Shown here one piece after another: positions 13,195-35,521 of a DNA stretch of 64,000 nucleotides. The stretch spans positions 64,001 to 128,000 of the forward strand of contig CAWGSK010000011.1 in assembly GCA_963825055.1 (NCBI GenBank), given 5' to 3'. The translations under genes and the position numbers were made by a program. The DNA comes from an uncultured Gemmatimonadales bacterium (GTDB lineage Bacteria; Gemmatimonadota; Gemmatimonadetes; Gemmatimonadales; GWC2-71-9). Position 1 is the first letter of the stretch; the number at the start of each line of letters is the position of its first letter. The notes under the pieces are model-generated. The model was not told where the DNA came from. It searched no databases and worked only from the letters and a program-made list of their open reading frames with translations.

Positions 13195-14880
13195 TCAGGA
13201 CGGCGGATCCACGTGCATGGTCATCATCATCCCTGCGCCCAGGTGCTCCGCAATGTGACAATGGAGCATCCAGTCACCAGGATTGGACGCGTCGACCAGC
13301 AGGTCCACCGTCGCGCCCACCGGGATCAGGACCGTGTCCTTCCACACCAGGTTGGCGGTGGGCACGCCGTCCCGGGAGACCACCAGCATCCGCTGCCCGT
13401 GCAGGTGAATGGGGTGCTGCATCGGGTGGAATGACTTGGGGTCGTTGAAGATCCGGAGCTTTACCACGGCGCCCTGGCGCACGTGCCAGTCAATGTCCCC
13501 GTTTTCCTTCCCCGTCGCGTCGTCCCGCAGGATCCAGCGGACCTGCTTCCCCGTCGACAGCCAGTTCATCTCGGGCATGCCGTCCACCCACTCCACCGGG
13601 TGGTAGTATGCCGTGTCGATGCTCATGAACTGCACTGTGAGGAGCGGGAGGCCCGACGTGGCGACCGTGAGCGTGATCCGCTTGTCCGGCGCCCGGTCGA
13701 AGTACGGGCGGTACCGGTCGATGTCGGCGGTGACCTCGGGATAGTCGTGGAGGGTGTCGAACGCCGCCCGATAGTCGGGCGCGGCGGGTGTACTGTCCAC
13801 CGTGACCCACCCGAGTGTGTCCACCTGGGCCTCGAACTCACCCTTGTAATGGTCGATCGCCTGAATGGCGTTCAGAAGCGGGTAGCGCCCCGGCCGGTCG
13901 AATCGCGCGGCAACCACGTAGCGCTCCGCTGGCGCCAGGACAACACTCGGCACGTATTGCTCGTGTTCGAAGCGGCTCACGTCCGATGCGAGCACCTTGA
14001 GCGGCACCCCCGGGATCGCGAGGTTCCACGTCCGTGAGCTGGCCACGTTGGTGACGTAGAACCGCACAACGTCCCCCCGGTGCATGGTCCACGCCCCCGC
14101 CGGCTCCCCGTTGACCAGCATGACATTCCCCACCCGCCCCATCAGCGCGAAGTCCGGCGCCTCCTTCCCGAACGGGATCAGGGTGTCGGCATGGATCATC
14201 AGGTCGCTCAGGACCAGGGGCACCTCCCGGTTGGCCGGGGAGTAGTAGTCCGGGTCGGGACTGTCTACCAGCATGTTCCCGTACAGTCCCATCGACTGCT
14301 CGATGTCCTCGCGCACGTGCGGGTGGTACCAGTAGATCCCGGCGTCCGGAAAGTGCACCGTGTAGGTGAAGTCCCCCCCCGGCTGGACGGCCGCCTGGGT
14401 CACGTCCGGGACGCCGTCGGACCGGTTGTCCAGGCGGACGCCGTGCCAGTGCACCGTACTGGGCAGGTCGATCCGGTTGTGGAACCGGACGGTGATGGTG
14501 GCATTCTGGGGAACGCGGATCAGTGGCCCGGGCACCTGGCCGTTGAATCCGTACATGACGAACGCGTGTCCCCGGATCGTGCGGCGCAGCAGGGTCGCCG
14601 TGAGGTCGAGGGTGTCCCCATCCGCCAGGGGAGTGATCTCGGACGGCCGCGCGCGGGCGACCGCGGCGGGGTCCACGCCCTCCCCCGGCAGGAACTCCCC
14701 CACCGGCGGCAGGAGGCCGACGAGTCCGGGCAGCATCACCATGCCTTTGGGCATCGGGATCGGCATGGCCATGGCGCTGTCGTGCCCCATGTGCATGCCC
14801 GGGGATCCGGAGGAATCCTGCGCCACCAGCCGGGCAGCCTGGAGGGAGGCCGCCAGCACGATGGGCAACAGCCGCTTCAC
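13195..14880 (-). CDS. Multicopper oxidase with Met/His-rich N-terminus
   Basis: All four Cu motifs: VHWHG, YWYHPH, HPIHLHG, HCHIAEHLGAGM. GTG start overlaps upstream stop; signal peptide. Confidence 0.92.
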   Translation of the reverse strand: MKRLLPIVLAASLQAARLVAQDSSGSPGMHMGHDSAMAMPIPMPKGMVMLPGLVGLLPPVGEFLPGEGVDPAAVARARPSEITPLADGDTLDLTATLLRRTIRGHAFVMYGFNGQVPGPLIRVPQNATITVRFHNRIDLPSTVHWHGVRLDNRSDGVPDVTQAAVQPGGDFTYTVHFPDAGIYWYHPHVREDIEQSMGLYGNMLVDSPDPDYYSPANREVPLVLSDLMIHADTLIPFGKEAPDFALMGRVGNVMLVNGEPAGAWTMHRGDVVRFYVTNVASSRTWNLAIPGVPLKVLASDVSRFEHEQYVPSVVLAPAERYVVAARFDRPGRYPLLNAIQAIDHYKGEFEAQVDTLGWVTVDSTPAAPDYRAAFDTLHDYPEVTADIDRYRPYFDRAPDKRITLTVATSGLPLLTVQFMSIDTAYYHPVEWVDGMPEMNWLSTGKQVRWILRDDATGKENGDIDWHVRQGAVVKLRIFNDPKSFHPMQHPIHLHGQRMLVVSRDGVPTANLVWKDTVLIPVGATVDLLVDASNPGDWMLHCHIAEHLGAGMMMTMHVDPPS

Positions 14881-15374
14881 TGGGAGATGCCGCGGAAGAG
14901 CGGATGCGAGAGGAAGCGCTGGAGCCAGCCGCTCGGTGACGTCCCGTGCAGCACCGTCGGGCCCGCATGCATACCGGGGGCGGAGTCGGCCTCCGCCGTG
15001 ATCACCAGGAGGAACTTGTTCCGGTCGACCGGCCCGACGGCACTCGTACCGTTCCGGACCGTACCGACCCGGCGCCACTCGGCGAGATCCGTGCTGACCT
15101 CCCAGGCCACGAAGGCCGTGTACCCGCCAAGCGACGCAGGTTCGGGAAGACCCTTCGCGGTGATGCGGATGTCATACACGTGATGCCCGTTCCCCGTCAC
15201 CGCCACGCCAAACGGCGAGGCGGCGAAGAACAGGCGGGCCGTTCCTTCCGCCGCCGGGGCGGCGGGCCCGGGGGCCAGCTTGATGTCGTACGGGCCCCCC
15301 GCGGGGAGCCTGGCGCCGAGCAGGAGCCCGGCGCAGAGCCCGGTGACCCGGAGTCCCGGGCCCATCCTCCGCAT
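14877..15374 (-). CDS. Hypothetical secreted protein
   Basis: ATG at 15374 in TAATG overlap with upstream stop; signal-like N-terminus; 'FLLVITAEAD' is reminiscent of anti-sigma-K (RskA) C-terminal beta domains. Confidence 0.7.
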   Translation of the reverse strand: MRRMGPGLRVTGLCAGLLLGARLPAGGPYDIKLAPGPAAPAAEGTARLFFAASPFGVAVTGNGHHVYDIRITAKGLPEPASLGGYTAFVAWEVSTDLAEWRRVGTVRNGTSAVGPVDRNKFLLVITAEADSAPGMHAGPTVLHGTSPSGWLQRFLSHPLFRGISQ

Positions 15375-22483: not shown

Positions 22484-23725
22484 ATGAGGCGACACGTCGT
22501 CCTGCGCAGCCTGCTGGGAACGGCGCTGCTGGCCGGAGCGCTGCGGCCCGCCGCGGGTCAGACGCAGCCCCTGGATTCCCTGCTCCGCGCCCACCGCCTG
22601 CCCTTGTCCTTCGCGAACGACACACCGTCGGGCCCTGGCTGGAGCTTCATCGTGGAGCAGGCCTCGGCGATGCGGTTCGTGATGATCGGGGAGTCCCACT
22701 ACGTCCGCGAAATTCCGCTCTTCACCAGCCATCTCTTCCATGCGCTCCACGGCCGGGCCGGATTTCAATACCTGGCTGTGGAGGACGGGCCATGGGCGAT
22801 CGGCATGCTGATGCAGCCGGGCGTGCGCGGAGATCGAGCCGCGACCTATGCGCGCGTCGTCCGGTTCCCGAACGCGCTCCAGTTCCTGAATGACCAGGAC
22901 GTCGACCTGCTTGTCGCTGTGGGCGGGATGTCGTCTGGTGGCAGTAACGCGGTCTGGGGACTGGACCAGACCTGGGGCGTGATGCATATCCTGGAGCGGT
23001 TGCAGGCACTGGCAGCCTCTCCTGCGAAGGTGGCGGCCGTGGAACGGATAGCGGCCCGGGCGCGACCCGTGGAAGCCAATCGGCCGGACGAGAACAACCC
23101 CCGCTTCATCACACAGGGCCTGACGAAGGATGATCTCGACACGCTGCGCGCCGCCATTGCGGATGCGCCGCCCGAGGCGACCCGCCTGCTGGACATGCTC
23201 GAGACATCGTCCGAGATCTACGGCGCGCGCACTGATGGCCCCGCGATCTACCGGGCCAATGACCGACGCGAGCGATACATGAAGTCGCGGTTCGTCCAGG
23301 CCTACGATGCCGCGCGTGCCGCAGGCGATCCGGCACCGCGCGTTCTCCTCAAGTTCGGGCACTGGCACGCCATCCGGGGCGTACTCAACTGGGGCGACAT
23401 ACAGCCCCTGGGCACGTTCGTATCGGAGCTCGCTCATCGAGAGGGTGGGGAGTCACTGCACATCTGGACCGGACTGGTGGACGAGCCGGGCCGGTACTGG
23501 ACGCTCTACGATTCGCCGGACTACGTGCCGCTGGCCAGGGCCGGCAGTACGGACGGGTGGTGGGTGGTTGACCTGCGGGAGGTCCGGCCCCTGGTGGCAG
23601 CCGGGAAGGTGGACGGGGTCAACGACGAGATGCGGCGGATCATCTTCGGTTTCGATCTCGCCCTGCTGATCGGCAACGGCAACCGCGCCACCTACGACCA
23701 GCTGATGAAGGCCGCCGGGCAGTAA
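22484..23725 (+). CDS. Secreted EreA/ChaN-like (erythromycin-esterase superfamily) protein
   Basis: Signal peptide; MIGESH, YLAVED, WGLDQ, RERYM, KFGHWH match the EreA/ChaN/TraB layout. Confidence 0.55.
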   Translation: MRRHVVLRSLLGTALLAGALRPAAGQTQPLDSLLRAHRLPLSFANDTPSGPGWSFIVEQASAMRFVMIGESHYVREIPLFTSHLFHALHGRAGFQYLAVEDGPWAIGMLMQPGVRGDRAATYARVVRFPNALQFLNDQDVDLLVAVGGMSSGGSNAVWGLDQTWGVMHILERLQALAASPAKVAAVERIAARARPVEANRPDENNPRFITQGLTKDDLDTLRAAIADAPPEATRLLDMLETSSEIYGARTDGPAIYRANDRRERYMKSRFVQAYDAARAAGDPAPRVLLKFGHWHAIRGVLNWGDIQPLGTFVSELAHREGGESLHIWTGLVDEPGRYWTLYDSPDYVPLARAGSTDGWWVVDLREVRPLVAAGKVDGVNDEMRRIIFGFDLALLIGNGNRATYDQLMKAAGQ

Positions 23726-23947
23726 CCCTCCAGCGGTTTTGCCGTCCGTGGCCAGCCTGGCCTTCGGTCGGCGAGGTCAGGTGACCTGGAGGGCGAGGCG
23801 CTTCGACGAAGCAGTCAGGTCGCAGGGGACAGCGGTGACATGCCCCACAGTCGCAGGCGAAACCTCGATGTACCTTGCTGTAACGGGGCGGCCGGCCCAC
23901 GCCCGGATCGCCCGAATGACCCCGGACCCCCACAGGAGCGCATTCTC

Positions 23948-24214
23948 ATGGAGATCATCGGCTTTCTCGTTTTCGGCCTGGTCGTCGGCGCACTGGCACG
24001 GCTCATCAAGCCGGGCCGGCAGAACCTGAGCCTGATGGCGACCCTGTTGCTCGGCGTGGTGGGATCGGTCATCGGGGGCATCATCGCCAGCTTCCTCGGC
24101 ACCGGCAGCATCATGGAGCTCAACGTCCTCGGCTCGATCGTCGCGATCATCTCCGCCGTGCTGCTGATCGGCGTGGCTGAGGGAATGTCGGGCGGGAAGC
24201 GCCCGCCGGCCTGA
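23948..24214 (+). CDS. GlsB/YeaQ/YmgE family stress-response membrane protein
   Basis: GLVVGALARLIKPG, TLLLGVVGSVIGG; AGGAG RBS. Confidence 0.9.
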   Translation: MEIIGFLVFGLVVGALARLIKPGRQNLSLMATLLLGVVGSVIGGIIASFLGTGSIMELNVLGSIVAIISAVLLIGVAEGMSGGKRPPA

Positions 24215-24219
24215 GAAGG

Positions 24220-24879
24220 GTGACGCCCTTCCAGCGGCAGGTGCGCGCCAGGGTCATCCAGGAGCTCCGTGACCGGTCACACGCGCCGTCGGTTGCGGAG
24301 CTCGAGGCGGGCCTCGATGCCACCGCAGCCGCGGTGCGCCAGGCCCTTCATGCGCTGGTGGATGCTCATCGGCTCGCGCTCCTCCCGGACTCCGATACCA
24401 TATGGATGGCCCACCCCTTCTCGGCTCTCCCGACCGTGCATGCCGTCCGCATCGGCAACCGCCGGTGGTATGCCAACTGCGCCTGGGACGGGCTGGCCAT
24501 CCTCGCGCTGCTCGGCGACGGAACGTTTGCAACCCGATGTCCCGCCAGCGACGAACCGATGGAGTACGAGGTCTATGGCCACCAGGTCCGCGGCACCGGA
24601 CTCGTGCATTTCCTGGTCCCGGCCCGTTCATTCTGGGATGATATCGGTTTCACCTGAGCCACCATCTCGGCGTTCCGGTCGGAACGCGCGCTGCACGAAT
24701 GGCTGGCATCGAAGGAGTACACGCCGGGTGCAACCGTGACCCCCCAGGCCCTCTACGACCTGTCGGTGGACTGGTACGCAAACCGGCTGGAGACCGACTG
24801 GCAGCCGGCGACGGCCGCCCAGGCACAGGCCATCCTCTCGCGCCATGGCCTGACCGGACCGTTCTGGACGCTGGCCTGA
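24220..24879 (+). CDS. MerB-like organometallic (alkylmercury) lyase, probable selenoprotein (UGA at 24655-24657 = Sec146; 219 aa)
   Basis: N-terminal HTH, MAHPFS, YANCAWD (Cys/Asp), WDDIGFT-TGA-ATISAFRSE; frame stays open to TGA 24877-24879 and encodes ...DWYANRLETDWQP...HGLTGPFWTL. Confidence 0.85.
24670..24687 (+). promoter_or_regulatory. Bacterial SECIS element (putative)
   Basis: GCGTTCC-GGTC-GGAACGC: 7-bp stem with GGUC loop starting 13 nt after the in-frame UGA. Confidence 0.75.
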
Positions 24880-24887
24880 CCATGATT

Positions 24888-24910
24888 CCCGGGGTCGCTA
24901 CGACCCCGGG
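24888..24910. terminator. Hairpin between convergent genes
   Basis: CCCGGGGTCG-CTA-CGACCCCGGG, perfect 10-bp stem; no U-tract. Confidence 0.45.
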
Positions 24911-26361
24911 CGCTGCAGGTATTCCCCGCTGAGTGAGTCGTAGACGCCGATCAGCGGCAACACGTTGCCCTGGTCATCGAACAGCCTGCCGCCCCACGAG
25001 ATCGGCTCCCAGATGGCCGCTCCCTTCCCCATGTCATCGGGAAGGCCGAATACGATGTCGTGCACCTCCCGTTTGAAGTCGGAATATTCCACCACGTTGA
25101 GCGGCTTGTGGTAGCGACCGGCCAGGTCGTGCAGGTTGGCGTTCAGGTCCTCCAGGGTGCCGTGCCAGCGGGGATAGTAGGACAGGCCGATGATGTCGAA
25201 CCGGACTCCCCGCGCCAGCATGTTGTCCAGCCAGAAGCGCGCCTCGGCGTTCTGCCCCCCAAGCGCGATGTGCATCATCACCGGGATGGCCGGATCTACC
25301 GCCTCCACGCCGTCCACTCCTGCCCGCAGCAGGCCCGCCAGCTGGTCCGGCTGGTCGATATGGCCGACCGGCCAGAGGAGGCCGTGATTGATCTCGTTCC
25401 CGACCTGGACCATGTCCGGAAGCGTGCCCTGCGCCTCCAGCGCCCGCAGTACGCGGGCCGTGTAGGTGCGCATGGAGTCCTGGAGCGCAGGATAGTCCGC
25501 CTCCGCCCACGCCAGCGGAATATTCTGCTGCTGCGGGTCGGCCCAGTAGTCACTGTAATGGAAATCGAGCAGAAGCTTGAGGCCGGCCGCCTTGACCCGT
25601 CGTGCCATGCTCAGGGTCGAGTCCAGCCCGCAGAAGCCGATGCCGGGGGAATACCCCTTCGGGTTCTCGGGATTCACGAAGATGCGCAGCCGGATGTAAT
25701 TGAAGCCGTGTCGCTTCAGGAGTTCGATCGCGTCCACCTTCTCCCCGTTTTCAAACACCCCCCCCGGTCCGCGGGAGAACCGGCCGGCCCGGTTTTCGAT
25801 CTCGGGGAGCCAGGAAATGTCCGCACCGATCATGCGATCGATGGGCTTGACGGTGGGCGGAAGCTGGTCGGACGCCGGGGTCATCAGCCGGACGTCTGCG
25901 GGGATGGTGTGGATTTCGTGCGCGCCCGGGTACAGGTGATCCGAGCGGGCTTCCACTTTTACCCGGTCCTGGGAGGTGCCGGCGCGCAGGCCCAGCCAGC
26001 GGGTCCCGTGGTCCAGGACCAGTGCGGCATACCGGGAACCCCCGGTGTCCGCCTCCATCGGCAGGGGCTCTCCGCCCCGCGACACGAGCGTGCCGTCCCC
26101 GGTCAGGTAGATCCGGACCGAGTCGCTCGCCGAGGTGATCTCCCGTCCCTGGCTGTCCGTCACGGCCACCCGGAGGCGGGTCGAGTCCGTCCCGTTGGCG
26201 CGGAGCGTGGTGCTGTAGCTCGTGAGCATGACAGCCAGAGGCGTGCCCGAGTCCACCCGGCTGGTCGCGGAGAAATCCGGCTGAGCGGCAGGGGCCCGGC
26301 CCCCGCATCCGGGCAGCGCGAGTGCCCAGAGCGCCGCCGCAGCGAACGGCAATGTCCTCAT
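24898..26361 (-). CDS. GH53 endo-1,4-beta-galactanase lipoprotein with N-terminal Ig-like domain
   Basis: GADISW, NYIRLRIFVNP, LLLDFHYSDYWADP, QVGNEI, GLSYYP, VVEY; lipobox LPGC. Confidence 0.9.
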   Translation of the reverse strand: MRTLPFAAAALWALALPGCGGRAPAAQPDFSATSRVDSGTPLAVMLTSYSTTLRANGTDSTRLRVAVTDSQGREITSASDSVRIYLTGDGTLVSRGGEPLPMEADTGGSRYAALVLDHGTRWLGLRAGTSQDRVKVEARSDHLYPGAHEIHTIPADVRLMTPASDQLPPTVKPIDRMIGADISWLPEIENRAGRFSRGPGGVFENGEKVDAIELLKRHGFNYIRLRIFVNPENPKGYSPGIGFCGLDSTLSMARRVKAAGLKLLLDFHYSDYWADPQQQNIPLAWAEADYPALQDSMRTYTARVLRALEAQGTLPDMVQVGNEINHGLLWPVGHIDQPDQLAGLLRAGVDGVEAVDPAIPVMMHIALGGQNAEARFWLDNMLARGVRFDIIGLSYYPRWHGTLEDLNANLHDLAGRYHKPLNVVEYSDFKREVHDIVFGLPDDMGKGAAIWEPISWGGRLFDDQGNVLPLIGVYDSLSGEYLQRPGS

Positions 26362-28178: not shown

Positions 28179-28827
28179 ATGCTCCAGATGGTCTGCCCTG
28201 TCCTGGCGTGCGACACCCGGGACAACGACCGCCAGCGGGGCGTTACATCATCTACCTGCACGCCAGGATGCTGGAGGGGGCGGCCGCCAGCCAGCTGATC
28301 CCGACTACGGCACTTACGAGTACGAGGCGATCCTCGACAGCCTCCGGCGGCCCGGCTACCGGGTGCTGAGCGACCAGCGCCCGCCCGGACTGGCCATTGA
28401 TACGTTCGTTACGGCTCTCACGCGCCAGGTGGACAGCCTGCTCAGAACCGGGGTATCGCCGCAGGCGATCACGGTCGTCGGCTTCTCCCGTGGCGCGGCC
28501 ATCGCCATCCTGGCGTCATCCCGCCTCCACAACCCCGCCATCAACTACGTCTTCATGGCGGGATGCGGAGACTGGGCCTTCGAGCTGCCTGACCTGCATG
28601 TCACGGGTCGTATTCTTTCCATGTATGAGACGAGCGACTCCCTCGGGGTTTCGTGCGCTCCCCTCTTTGCACGTGCGGGCCCGGGTCGGTCGTCCAGGAG
28701 GTCCCGCTCAGCCTCGGGCTGGGCCACGGCACGTTTTTCCAGCCGCGAACCGCCTGGCTTGCGCCGGCGCTGGCGTGGGCCGCCGGGCATGAACCACCGC
28801 GCACGGGGTCTCCCCAGGCCCGAATGA
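28179..28827 (+). CDS. Alpha/beta hydrolase; several frameshifts
   Basis: YIIYLH, DYGTYEYEAIL, ITVVGFSRGA nucleophile elbow and GHGTFF found in different frames. Confidence 0.55.
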
Positions 28828-30397: not shown

Positions 30398-31846
30398 TCA
30401 GCCCACCTGCACGTTGAGCATCATGCCGTCATCCTCGTGCTGGAGGTTATGGCAGTGCAGCAGGAAGAGACCAGCGTAAGTGGTGAAGCGCACGCGCACC
30501 GCGACAGTTTCGCCCGGGAAGATCAGAGCAGTGTCCTTCCACCCGGCCTCGTACGGATAGACGATCCCCCGGCCACCGCCGCGTGACTCAACCTGAAACT
30601 GGGTGCCGTGGAGATGGACCGGATGTGGGATCGTGCTGTCGTTCACGAAGATCCAGCGCTCGGTCCGCCCGAGCGGCACCTGAACGTCCACCCGGTCCAT
30701 GTCGAACGTGAGGCCGTTGATCCGGTGCATGCCCGTGCCCGCAGTCGTGCCGAAGACGAAGGTGCGGTCGACCGCTGGGGCCCCCAGCGGCGCCACGGCC
30801 GATAGCGCCCCCGGCATGGGCGACGGTGGCTCGGACGGGGTAGGGTCGCGTCGAATCTCCAGGAGATCCATCCCGCGGCCCTGGGGGAACGTTGCACTCG
30901 TCGGTGCCCCGGTGCTGAAGGGAAGGGACTGCAACATCATGCTGGTTCCAGGAGGCATGCCGGAGAAGTCCAGCAGAATGTCTGCCCGCTCCCCCACGCC
31001 CAGATACACGTCGCCAACCTCCACCGCTGCAGGCAGCAGGCCGCCGTCGTTGCCGATGACGGTCAGGGGCGCGCCGGTACTGACCGCGAGCCGGTAGACC
31101 CGGGCATGGGAGGCGTTCAGAACGCGCAGGCGATACAGGCCCCCCACGACAGTGAGGGTGGGTGACCGGACCCCGTTACCCCACGCCACATCGCGCAGCA
31201 TGCCTTCCTGGAGATCCATAGAGGTCGGGTGGTAGTCGAAGGCCGAGGAGGGATTCGCGTCACGATCCTGGAGCACCAGCAGGATTTCACGCCCGCCGGC
31301 CGGCAGGTCGAGCGCGGCTTCCTCGTGGTCGCTTATAAGGAAGAATCCCGCGAGCCCGGCCTGCACCTGGGCGGCCGTGCGCTGATGAGGATGAGGGTGG
31401 TACCAGTACGTCCCCGCTCGCTGGACGATGGGAAACGCGTAGTCGAACTGCCCTCCGGAGCCAATGACATGACGGGGATGCCCGTCGGCGGCGCCGGGCA
31501 CGATCAGGCCGTGCCAGTGGATGATAGTCGGCTCCGACAGCCTGTTTGCAAGTCGAATGGTGGCCTGGTCGCCCTGCCGGGCGATCAGGGTCGGACCCGG
31601 CAGGTGATCGTTGTACCGCCAGGTCGAGATGGATGATGACCTGGCGGGGGCGGCCGTCAGCGTCACGCTCCCGATGCCCAGGACCCCAGGCACCGGCAGT
31701 GATGACGGGTCGGTGCCGTCGGGGCCGGCGGCTTTCTCCCCACACCCCGACAACCCTGGCAGGCTCCCCAGAGCGGCCGCCGTGATCGAACCCGTGGCCA
31801 GGCGGACGAACTGGCGCCGGTTGAATCGGAGGCCGGAACGGTCCAT
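30398..31846 (-). CDS. Tat-exported multicopper oxidase (CueO/CotA-like)
   Basis: NRRQFV twin-Arg; IHWHG, YWYHPH, HPVHLHG, HCHNLQHEDDGMM. Confidence 0.92.
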   Translation of the reverse strand: MDRSGLRFNRRQFVRLATGSITAAALGSLPGLSGCGEKAAGPDGTDPSSLPVPGVLGIGSVTLTAAPARSSSISTWRYNDHLPGPTLIARQGDQATIRLANRLSEPTIIHWHGLIVPGAADGHPRHVIGSGGQFDYAFPIVQRAGTYWYHPHPHQRTAAQVQAGLAGFFLISDHEEAALDLPAGGREILLVLQDRDANPSSAFDYHPTSMDLQEGMLRDVAWGNGVRSPTLTVVGGLYRLRVLNASHARVYRLAVSTGAPLTVIGNDGGLLPAAVEVGDVYLGVGERADILLDFSGMPPGTSMMLQSLPFSTGAPTSATFPQGRGMDLLEIRRDPTPSEPPSPMPGALSAVAPLGAPAVDRTFVFGTTAGTGMHRINGLTFDMDRVDVQVPLGRTERWIFVNDSTIPHPVHLHGTQFQVESRGGGRGIVYPYEAGWKDTALIFPGETVAVRVRFTTYAGLFLLHCHNLQHEDDGMMLNVQVG

Positions 31847-32619: not shown

Positions 32620-35521
32620 ATGTACCTCCTGCGTACCCTCGGCGCCTCTGGCCTGTGGCGGATTTCGACCCCCGTCGAGGCCATTAATTCGTACCGAAGT
32701 GCGCTCGCCATCCTGATCATCCTGGCCACCGACGGACCCGTGACCCGGGATCGCCTCATGGCCCTGCTGTGGCCCGAGAGCGACACCGACCGGGCACGGG
32801 GCTCACTGAAGCAGACGCTGCATGTCCTCCGTCGCCAGACGGAGGGACCTCCGGTCGTCCTCGGGCGGTCGACTCTCCACCTGAACACCGACGCACTCAC
32901 CAGCGACGTGGCGTCGTTCCGGGCCGCCTTGGACACGGGAGATCATGCGGCGGCCGTGGCCCGGTACGGGGGCCCCTTCCTTGACGGCACCCACCTCGGC
33001 GCTTCCCGCGAGCTCCAGCAATGGGTGGACAGCCGGCGGGAGGCGCTCTCGTCCGGTTATCGCCAGGCACTCCGGCAGCTCGTGGAAGCCGCCGAGGACA
33101 CCGGCAATGCCGAGGAAGCGGTTCGGCTCTGGCGGCGCATCCAGGCGGAAGACCCGTACGACGATGTGGTATCGCTGCGCCTGATGCGAGCCCTGGCTGC
33201 CGCCGGACAACGCGCCGCGGCGTTGCGGCACTTCGCTGCCTACGAAGTGCTGCTCCGGGAAGAGGTGGGCCTCACACCCTCGACCGGCGTGCTGTCCTTC
33301 GCCGGGCAATTGCGACAGAGGGAAGCGGAGGGAGTGTCCGATTCGCCGCCGGAGCGTCTGCGTCCGCCACCCCCGCCGCCGTGCCAGCAGCAACACCTGG
33401 GAGTCGGCGCCGCTGGCCGGTAGTGGCGGCCGTTCTGGTCACACTCGCCATCGTGCTGGCCGTCGGTCTGAGCGTACGAGACGATGATGCGCCGGTCGCA
33501 GTGGATGCCGACCTCGTGGCGATCGCGCCGTTCGAGACGCCGGATACCACCCTGCTCGTCTGGGGGGAGGGACTGGCCGACATCCTGGGGCAGTCGCTCG
33601 ACGGCGCTGGCCCGCTCCGCACCGTGGCCCCATCCGTCGCGATTCGCCGCTGGGAAGGGAGGGCCGACCGCCCCTCTGCCGACCGACTGGGCCACCGGAC
33701 TGGGGCCGGCATCGTTGTTGTCGGCCAGCTGGTCCGACTTGGCCCTGATTCAGTCCGCGTGCGCGCAACCATCCTGGACCGGACGTCCCGGACGGAGACA
33801 GCTGACATCGAGGTGGCCGGGGAGGAAACCCGGATGGGACAACTGTCCGACTCGCTGACTGTCCATATTCTCCGGGCCTTGGGCCGCCATCGCGCGGTCG
33901 GATCGGTCCAGAACGTCTCGATCACCTCCCGGTCGCTTCCGGCGCTGAAGGCCTTCCTCCGGGGAGAACAGTTCTACCGCCGCGGGGATGCGGATTCCGC
34001 GCTCGCCGAATACGATCGGGCCATTGCCGCGGACAGCACCTTTGCCCTCGCCCTCCGGCGCATGGGATGGCTGATCGGATCCGGCACGCCGTCCTCCGGC
34101 CGATACGAACCGCAGCAGTCGTACATCCGTCGCGCCGTACGGTGGAACCGCGGACTCTCGACCCGCGACAGCGTCCTGCTGACCGGCGACTCCCTCCGGC
34201 TGCACTATCTCGACGCCAGCACGGTCGAGGAATTCATCAGCGGCTACTGGCGGTCAGTCCAGAGCCTGGAGTTGCTGGCAAGACGGTATCCCGAGGATCC
34301 GGCCATCTGGTATGACCTCGCCGAGCGACGCATCCACGCCCCTCCACCACTGGGCGGCTTCGCGGGCCCGGCGCTCGAGGCGTTCGAACGGACGATTGCG
34401 CTCGATTCGGCATTCGCGCCTGCCTACATGCACATACCGCGACTCGCGCTCCAGCTCGGTCGGGACTCGACGGCTGCGGGCTACGCCAGCCGCTACCGGC
34501 GCCAGCACCTTGAGGAATCCTTTGCCCGGCGATCCAGCTTCTCAGTGACATTCTGTCGGCCGGCGGGCTCGACCGCCCCAGCATCCGGGAGGAGGTCCGG
34601 GAGGCGAGCCTGGCCAAGCTGGAGTGGACCGGCGCCGACCACCTCCGCTGGTGGACCGACAGCGGAGAGGCGGCCGTCTCGGTGCTCCGTGAGCTGGTCG
34701 AGGGAAACCACTCGGCCCACGGCGCAGACCAGGAAACGCGGGATCCGCTGCTTCAACGGCAGAGACTGGCCATGCTGCTGGCGTTCCGGGGCCATCTCTC
34801 GGAAGCGGCCACGACGGATGCGCAACTACTGGCGGACGAGGAAGCGTCTTCCTTTTCCGCGGTATTCGACCCGTTCCTGGACCTGGCATTGTTCGGTGTA
34901 ATCGCGGATTCCCAGGCACGGCGAACATTCGCCCGTGCCTGGTCGCCCGATGCGGACTGGGCGGTGGGACGACCGCTTCCGCGCCCCCCTCGCTTCCTGG
35001 CCGGCCTGCCCTGGTGGTATGCCAAAGGCGATACGGTTTCCCTGATCCGGCTGATGGAGCGCGCCATCACCACAGGCGAACGAGGCTCTCCGGTCGCAGT
35101 CCTTCGCGCCAGGTACTACGGGAGCTCCGCGGCGGCCTATCTCGCCCTGCTGCGCGGGGACTCGGCCCGGGCCACGCAGGGCTTCAGCGCCGTCCCCGAT
35201 ACTCTGTGCATCGTTGCAGATTGCCTGCCTGAAAAGATCCTGCTGGCTAAGCTTCTCGACGCGAGGGGCGATCATGACCGGGCCACGGCCCTCCTCGATC
35301 AATGGTTCCAGACTATGGAGGCCCGCCCCCTGATCGTGCTGCTCGCCCTGGAGCGCGGACGGATCGCCGAGCGCCTGGGGGATTCCCACGGCGCAGTGCG
35401 GCACTATCGCTTCGTGCTTGAAGCATGGCAGCGGCCTGACCCGCGGCTGGAAGGATATGTGGCGTTTGCACGTGAGGGGCTGCGCCGGGTCGCCGCCGAA
35501 CGGGACCGGAACGCTCCCTGA
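32620..35521 (+). CDS. SARP/BTAD transcriptional activator with TM, TolB-like and TPR domains; frameshifts near 33380 and 34530
   Basis: VTRDRLMALLWPESD..RARGSLKQTL, YGGPFLDG, LMRALAAAGQRAAAL; VAIAPF; TSRSLPALKAFLRGE. Confidence 0.82.

Follow-up and report, generated by a model that had tools for sequence, protein, structure and literature searches.

The reading frame that opens with the GTG at position 24220 (plus strand) of the 64-kb stretch of DNA analyzed here (the window) meets an in-frame TGA at 24655-24657, and the question is whether this triplet ends a protein of 145 amino acids or encodes selenocysteine (Sec, U) in a longer one. Directly before the TGA the translation reads WDDIGFT. 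Behind it, the same frame continues for 73 sense codons up to the TGA at 24877-24879, giving a full coding sequence (24220..24879) for a MerB-like protein of 219 amino acids. A first-pass annotation of this DNA had already treated the ORF-track stop as an internal codon of a 219-residue read-through product with the motifs YANCAWD and GFT-U, and the frame, the length and both motifs are confirmed on the sequence. Based on the comparisons below, 24220..24879 appears to be a real, misannotated selenoprotein gene that belongs to a large MerB-like branch separate from SaoL, and its apparent internal stop, UGA146, is almost certainly a Sec codon read by SelB-dependent insertion.

The Pfam profile MerB (PF03243) matches residues 67-186 with 77.1 bits against a cut-off of 27, and this match spans the UGA. 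Alignment to solved MerB, with the register fixed by the C160S entry, pairs Cys87, Asp90, Cys107 and residue 146 with Cys96, Asp99, Cys117 and Cys159, respectively. Cys87-Ala-Trp-Asp90 (24478..24489, plus strand) is the equivalent of the Cys96/Asp99 pair, Cys107 (24538..24540, plus strand) that of the structural Cys117, and the UGA (24655..24657, plus strand), in the motif F-T-U, occupies the Cys159 column. Cys96, Asp99 and Cys159 are called essential in MerB (PMC10114901).

The in-frame UGA and its hairpin

Neither the length of the open frame nor the energy of the hairpin was accepted as sole proof of recoding, the former being too common and the latter too weak. In this GC-rich genome, at least 73 open codons follow 23% of the TGA triplets (19,084 of 81,888). 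The open frame and the hairpin, weak on their own, become decisive through conservation. Scanning species-representative genomes yielded 258 confirmed relatives. The best 80 were kept, and TGA occupies the same column in 80 out of 80 of these loci, each time with another 70-85 open codons downstream. They come mostly from Actinomycetota and further from Acidobacteriota, Chloroflexota, Gemmatimonadota and others; pairwise identity within the family has a median of 62% and a minimum of 31%. Within a sample of 251 genomes of the gene's own phylum, a full-length TGA form is present in 29, with 30 copies in total, and a full-length TGC form in two.

A database search returned 845 matches. Among the best 120, 118 cover at most 66% of the 219-residue query, and among 17 sequences that were inspected, 15 stop at the residue that precedes the UGA, and the other two carry Trp in its place. 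A profile search resulted in 355 clusters at E ≤ 1e-30. Of the best 150 of these 355 50%-cluster representatives, 76 break off immediately ahead of the column; the residue in it is Cys in 61 and Trp in two, and the other 11 show a gap or a different residue. In the homologue alignment that had been proposed as a check on the read-through, the UGA column holds Cys (in those 61 representatives) or TGA (in the 80 loci). The pattern by which a selenoprotein is recognized, namely a UGA aligned with the Cys of homologues and similarity that continues past it, is observed here.

That the UGA is a true stop, be it in a pseudogene, through an assembly error or as the end of a 145-residue protein followed by a separately started C-terminal piece, is highly improbable. 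Databases do list the 145-residue form, an ATG three codons after the UGA offers a possible second start in 70 of 81 loci, and indel errors occur in such assemblies (e.g., at locus L153). However, the conserved triplet is TGA across several phyla and never TAA or TAG, 11 of the 81 loci, the one in the window included, have ATC instead of ATG at +3, a split protein would lose precisely the ligand that corresponds to Cys159, and in the Cys forms one undivided gene spans the same length. Moreover, codon 24655-24657 is covered by contigs of three out of four public runs (one soil study), which agree on TGA with no differing letter listed; these are contigs rather than raw reads, and the best run possibly stems from the source sample itself. 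Elsewhere in the window (28363-28827 and 32620-35521), several genes seem to be frameshifted, each frame overlapping and extending the previous one, which fits indel errors in the assembly.

Reading of the UGA as Trp, through genetic code 4 or suppression, is practically negligible as an explanation. Four database proteins carry W in the column (P0003, P0004, P0122 and P0128), but a metagenome scan with the family motif and TGC, TGT or TGG in the column gave six matches (four distinct) that all have Cys codons and none TGG, while the same pattern with TGA fits 90 of 110 TGA loci. Given these all-Cys matches, the Trp entries are most likely code-4 gene calls. P0003 also has a W followed by a 57-residue tail where its relatives stop, as such a gene call would give. 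In addition, the MerB-like gene and its upstream neighbor both end in TGA, and the genome has a tRNA-Sec with anticodon UCA. One entry, P0128, lacks Cys96 and stands for a cluster with eight members; here the Trp may be genuine, in a degenerate form of the protein.

The hairpin GCGTTCC-GGTC-GGAACGC lies at 24670-24687 (plus strand), its first base being the 13th after the UGA, just as the first-pass annotation had described it. This upper stem-loop of a bacterial SECIS element has 7 bp and an apical GGUC loop (24677-24680) 19 nt after the UGA, overlaps the codons for A-F-R-S-E-R and has a folding energy of -10.5 kcal/mol, with a z-score of -1.8 for a 27-nt piece and of about 0 to -1.1 for longer pieces. 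Hairpins with a GGTC or GGAC loop and at least six pairs at 16-23 nt follow only 34 of the 81,888 TGAs of the genome, the motif having been picked post hoc. According to the bSECIS consensus in a 2026 review, the loop counts 3-9 nt with a G in the first two places, the stem 4-16 bp, the distance to the UGA 16-37 nt and the energy at most -7.5 kcal/mol. The window hairpin lies within these constraints as evaluated with our own script rather than bSECISearch, and the contiguous stem alone reaches -7.5 kcal/mol in 82 of the 110 loci. Also the parallel drawn earlier with Escherichia coli fdhF holds: both elements are stem-loops in the coding region with an apical GGUC loop, at 18 nt after the UGA in fdhF and 19 nt here, while fdhF has a bulge and the upper stem described here is a perfect 7 bp. 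This fdhF-like SECIS suggests that the MerB-like selenoprotein could be produced in E. coli with little change.

Conservation of the hairpin was assessed in 81 aligned loci (78 distinct). A proportion of 97.8% of the upper-stem cells is paired, compared to 38-54% in slid controls, and two-sided changes occur in four of the seven stem pairs, values that none of 500 shuffles reaches; these counts are inflated because the stem overlaps the conserved coding residues F-R-S-E, and the aligned rows are related rather than independent. The window stem itself differs from the family consensus by three two-sided pair changes. The codons of the loop are fixed, with CGG for Arg in 80 of 81 loci and TCG for Ser in 81 of 81, while elsewhere in the same genes CGG makes up 31% of 1177 Arg codons and TCG 40% of 559 Ser codons. 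A hairpin with the GG of the loop starting at 19 nt and at least five pairs is present in 103 of the 110 TGA loci versus two of 10 Cys loci (eight distinct), and in the close Cys forms the hairpin is decaying. Some of these close relatives, with TGC or TGT (L138-L143), represent recent Sec-to-Cys changes; among them, the SECIS is kept in L141 and L142 and decayed in L138-L140 and L143.

The genome (3.53 Mb, 87% complete, 6% contamination) encodes selA, selB, selD and tRNA-Sec above the cut-offs, all on other contigs, and the search for selA, selB, selC and selD that had been suggested as a check on the Sec reading thus found the complete set. SelD of this genome is itself a Sec form with an in-frame UGA (H-G-A-G-U-A-C-K; G000:C3:45499, L085), and its hairpin is unlike the GGUC type. 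A genome scan for GGUC/GGAC hairpins found no selenoproteins besides the MerB-like gene and also missed SelD, of which the hairpin is different; in three molybdopterin-enzyme loci, no UGA occurs in the stretch inspected. Among the 80 carriers, 50 genomes were examined for selA, which is present in 47. In the own phylum, selA occurs in 29 of 29 carriers versus 202 of 251 genomes overall (a tally that includes the unpublished genomes G105 and G205, neither of them a carrier), and in an actinobacterial class in 13 of 13 TGA carriers, with the TGA column checked for three of these, versus 110 of 151 genomes overall. When both taxon samples are pooled, selA is found in 42 of 42 TGA carriers, the TGA form occurs in none of 90 selA-negative genomes, and two selA-negative genomes carry TGC forms. 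Since the background rates of selA are high (73-80%) and related genomes are not independent, this co-occurrence is supporting rather than decisive. The one Gemmatimonas genome in Peng et al. 2016 (PMC5029168) is listed without Sec; together with the selA counts, this leaves room for more unannotated selenoproteins, which both the phylum Gemmatimonadota and the actinobacterial class may hold.

Distribution and genomic setting

The gene starts 5 nt after a small gene of the transglycosylase-associated type and converges on a GH53 gene. A scan for promoters and terminators across 23600-25100 found nothing. In a related strain, one contig (about 85-89% alike; window 24214-25003) has 115 other bases between the two flanking genes and lacks the MerB-like gene. 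Only two of the 30 nearest relatives carry the full gene, plus one that carries a fragment, and the nearest neighbors in a quick tree are an acidobacterial copy (61% identity) and actinobacterial copies instead of copies from the own phylum. Taken together, the strain without the gene, its rarity among near relatives and the foreign tree neighbors point to patchy gain and loss of the MerB-like gene, as far as can be judged from sequences. Phages are not seen as carriers, with no match in 50,697 records. A Gemmatimonadota host, as put forward in the first-pass annotation, is consistent with one marker (SecF has its best matches in two Gemmatimonadota genomes of five compared), which falls short of proof.

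Around 110 loci, no conserved neighborhood was detected: the largest neighbor clusters occur at no more than 12 of the 110 loci and comprise housekeeping genes of the lineage, such as purH and cysteine/cystathionine synthase. No mer or sao families were found among 150 neighbor proteins (150 of the 159 first-neighbor cluster representatives), and a search with MerA, MerR, MerT, MerP and MerC-like proteins as queries found no merA, merT, merP or mer-type merR beside the 110 loci, with one weak MerR-family match at 4 kb distance. Within the 64-kb window, no mer genes were found either. Two multicopper-oxidase-like genes with His-rich copper motifs, recognized by eye, lie on the minus strand within 11 kb of the gene (13195-15078 and 30398-31846).

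These observations bear on a classical role in broad-spectrum mercury resistance, in which the protein, like MerB, would pass Hg(II) to MerA. The catalytic triad is intact, and MerA exceeds the cut-off in five of 78 carrier genomes. Nonetheless, the other 73 carriers lack a MerA above the cut-off, as does the present genome (87% complete), in which no candidate has the C-terminal CC, and none of the 110 loci lies in a mer operon. The general lack of MerA argues against such a role, which we deem improbable. One genome (G146) combines two Sec copies of a C-I-W-D subtype (L105 and L129) with a complete merR-merT-merP-merA operon located on a different contig (L132).

Fold, active site and predicted function

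An AlphaFold2 model built from 35 read-through sequences has a mean pLDDT of 97. Its best structural match is MerB2 (5C17; E 1.3e-9, Z 19.7, TM 0.71, rmsd 2.9 Å over 186 residues), followed by MerB with Z 14.5-15.1, while unrelated winged-helix proteins reach at most Z 11. Sec at the Cys159-equivalent position, as the first-pass annotation had it, is backed by the alignment to solved MerB, by the alternation of Cys and TGA, by the conserved bSECIS-type hairpin and by the Sec machinery of the genome. A C-terminal extension (about residues 192-219; 24793..24876, plus strand) with the motif W-x-P ... G-L-x-G-x-F-W marks the family. It lies beyond the part that aligns with MerB crystal structures, as the structure alignments stop at residues 191-195, and its W194 and W216 are invariant in 35 aligned rows.

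The N-terminal domain (residues 1-63; 24220..24408, plus strand) is winged-helix-like in the model and matches the helix-turn-helix domains of LexA and MntR type with Z up to 11.1. The protein could therefore be a one-component sensor of metals or organometals, with DNA bound through the N-terminal winged helix and the ligand sensed at the Cys/Sec site. Matches to the winged helices of LexA, MntR and DtxR with Z 8-11, a weak GntR profile match below the cut-off and the naming of two relatives as MocR-family regulators by JGI fit with this idea. Yet the same region is the counterpart of the N-terminal part of MerB and MerB2, with residues 1-191 of the model aligning to MerB2 as a whole, and there is no conserved neighbor as a possible target, which makes a sensor improbable as well.

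The reading that we prefer is that of a stand-alone selenoenzyme with a MerB fold that breaks metal-carbon bonds. Its probability is estimated at roughly 0.5, and the lyase activity as such, which follows by analogy from MerB chemistry, is given about even odds. In this proposal, the ribosome would meet UGA146 with the SECIS hairpin 19 nt downstream, SelA, SelB, SelD and tRNA-Sec all being encoded in the genome. Following the established bacterial pathway, SelB-GTP-Sec-tRNA would then bind the GGUC loop and insert Sec, resulting in the 219-residue protein, while without selenium the product would stop at 145 residues and miss one metal ligand. The Cys87 thiolate and the Sec146 selenolate would bind the metal of an organometallic cation and Asp90 would protonate the carbon, after which R-H would be released, with the metal retained until thiols of the cell take it over. 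The underlying MerB mechanism is that described in PMC10114901. By the same analogy, organomercurials such as methylmercury may be the single most likely substrate class, although another soft metal or metalloid is possible. Selenolate binds soft metals more tightly than thiolate. For this reason, the enzyme would capture organomercurials at trace level, that is, at lower concentrations, and would release the metal more slowly. MerB without MerA reportedly lowers methylmercury resistance.

Alternatively, the selenoprotein may not be a lyase. The Cys87/Sec146 pair could hold a soft metal or metalloid (Hg, Cu, Ag, As) with high affinity, as a sink or chaperone, or it could be a selenenylsulfide redox center; the CxxC that most members have nearby would then be the second site. 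We regard this as possible, though clearly the less probable assignment. It would agree with the lack of MerA or a mer operon in most carriers, with the CxxC that 82 of the 110 TGA loci have at the Cys117 position (seven have no Cys there) and with a sister branch that has C-x-x-C instead of C-x-x-D. Furthermore, MerB variants bind Cu(II) (PMC10114901, PMC8261052) and the 2026 review expects a redox role for most uncharacterized selenoproteins. Against it, all 110 TGA loci retain C-x-x-D and with it Asp90, the proton donor in MerB; the window protein lacks the CxxC, and no recurring redox or metal-transport partner appears among the 150 neighbor proteins scanned.

Several natural variants of the scaffold were encountered. 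UGA occurs at both the Cys96 and Cys159 positions in two MerB-like loci, L152 (G362:C3:401963-402622) and L128:2424-3062 (G224). L152 reads W-F-A-Q-U-A-F-E, with Glu for Asp99; its second UGA is followed by the GGUC SECIS of the family, its first by another hairpin. A Cys-only branch has C-x-x-C in place of Cys96-x-x-Asp99, i.e., three site Cys (L121, L137 and about 20 representatives such as P0145, P0146 and P0166). This branch includes a gene on Ralstonia megaplasmids (98 of 100 plasmid records matched) and also occurs in selA-negative genomes of the phylum Gemmatimonadota. The presence of Cys for Asp99 in this large branch suggests that the scaffold is also used for chemistry besides Asp-mediated protonolysis. 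With one scaffold available in natural Sec, Cys, two-Sec and Asp-to-Cys versions, the effect of selenium on metal-carbon cleavage becomes directly testable, and so does the role of MerB-like proteins in the many genomes without MerA.

In any case, a widespread environmental selenoprotein subfamily is added that gene callers cut at residue 145. A more far-reaching view, which we advance only tentatively and consider rather unlikely, is that the family constitutes an uncounted selenium-dependent, MerA-independent lyase of methylmercury or another organometal in about a tenth of Gemmatimonadota and of one soil actinobacterial class. Methylmercury-degrader surveys look for Cys96, Asp99 and Cys159 in called proteins (PMC8261052, PMC12484752), so truncated family members would be dropped. 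If the view were true, merB surveys that demand Cys159 in called proteins would miss a main biological demethylation route in soils and sediments, and selenium supply would directly control that route. The finding would be more consequential if methylmercury cleavage without MerA were shown.

Comparison with SaoL, MerB and MerB2

Sec at the Cys159 position is not a new idea, as it was already published for SaoL, with residues Cys99, Asp102 and Sec162 (Haft & Gwadz, bioRxiv 10.1101/2022.07.06.499078). An inventory of 119 prokaryotic selenoprotein families (PMC13188914, Table 1) lists SaoL (C-U) alone for the MerB fold, and PMC9312934 and the deep-Sep supplement give C-U representatives for the MerB-like selenoprotein. 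The supplement of Peng et al. 2016 (PMC5029168) contains an entry "Organic mercuric lyase MerB2" for a selenoprotein in 17 organisms, which the main text does not mention. This entry shares the status of a selenoprotein with a MerB domain, but the sequence that later came to represent the MerB-like entry, WP_238493467.1, is C-U and of SaoL type; overlap with the present family is possible. BSepDB gathers any TGA that aligns to a known Sec by iterative tblastn (E 0.01), and by this rule it may hold members of the present family under the name SaoL. In the selenoprotein literature searched, no paper on the T-U branch was found; it is absent from the catalogues examined, namely PMC13188914, PMC9312934 and the deep-Sep supplement.

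The likeness to SaoL (NF040728) invoked in the first-pass annotation holds for the site and not for the protein. Both share the PF03243 fold, Cys-x-x-Asp and Sec at the Cys96/Asp99/Cys159 positions and an annotation that is falsely cut at the UGA, and for both the function is predicted. SaoL, however, has the dipeptide C-U, while T-U occurs here; the residue before the UGA is T in 80 of 81 loci and A in one. The NF040728 profile scores 26.8 bits against a cut-off of 140 (22-53 bits for three relatives), and the nine-gene sao cluster is absent around the window gene. A search for saoB and saoC in the genome gave no match, nor did its positive control. The SaoL hosts described are anaerobes, whereas the present family occurs in Actinomycetota, Gemmatimonadota, Chloroflexota, Acidobacteriota and others. 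About 50 codons follow the Sec in SaoL compared to 70-90 here, including the family-specific C-terminal tail, and only the present family has many Cys counterparts.

Canonical MerB (EC 4.99.1.2; 3F0O, 3F2F, 1S6L; NF033555, PRK13239) shares the fold, the equivalents of Cys96, Asp99 and Cys117 and the position of the second ligand. It differs in having Cys159 where Sec stands here, in Cys160, which is missing here, in an identity of about 20%, and in its mer operon, which is absent here, with MerA mostly missing as well. The equivalog scores are correspondingly low, with 27.2 versus 200 bits for NF033555 and 31.2 versus 193 bits for PRK13239. MerB2 of Bacillus megaterium (5C17), besides being the best structural match, shares the Thr before the second ligand (G-T-C compared to F-T-U here). 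It carries Ser at position 99 and has low activity (PMC10114901), while the present protein keeps Asp. In the quick tree of 124 rows, of which 117 belong to the family (Sec, Cys and truncated) and none is a true SaoL, the family parts from canonical MerB (97) and SaoL-like rows (96) with an SH-aLRT of 87. Rows with Sec and rows with Cys intermingle in part, and the tree does not settle the number of Sec origins. The protein is neither SaoL nor a canonical MerB, but a member of a separate branch of the MerB fold.
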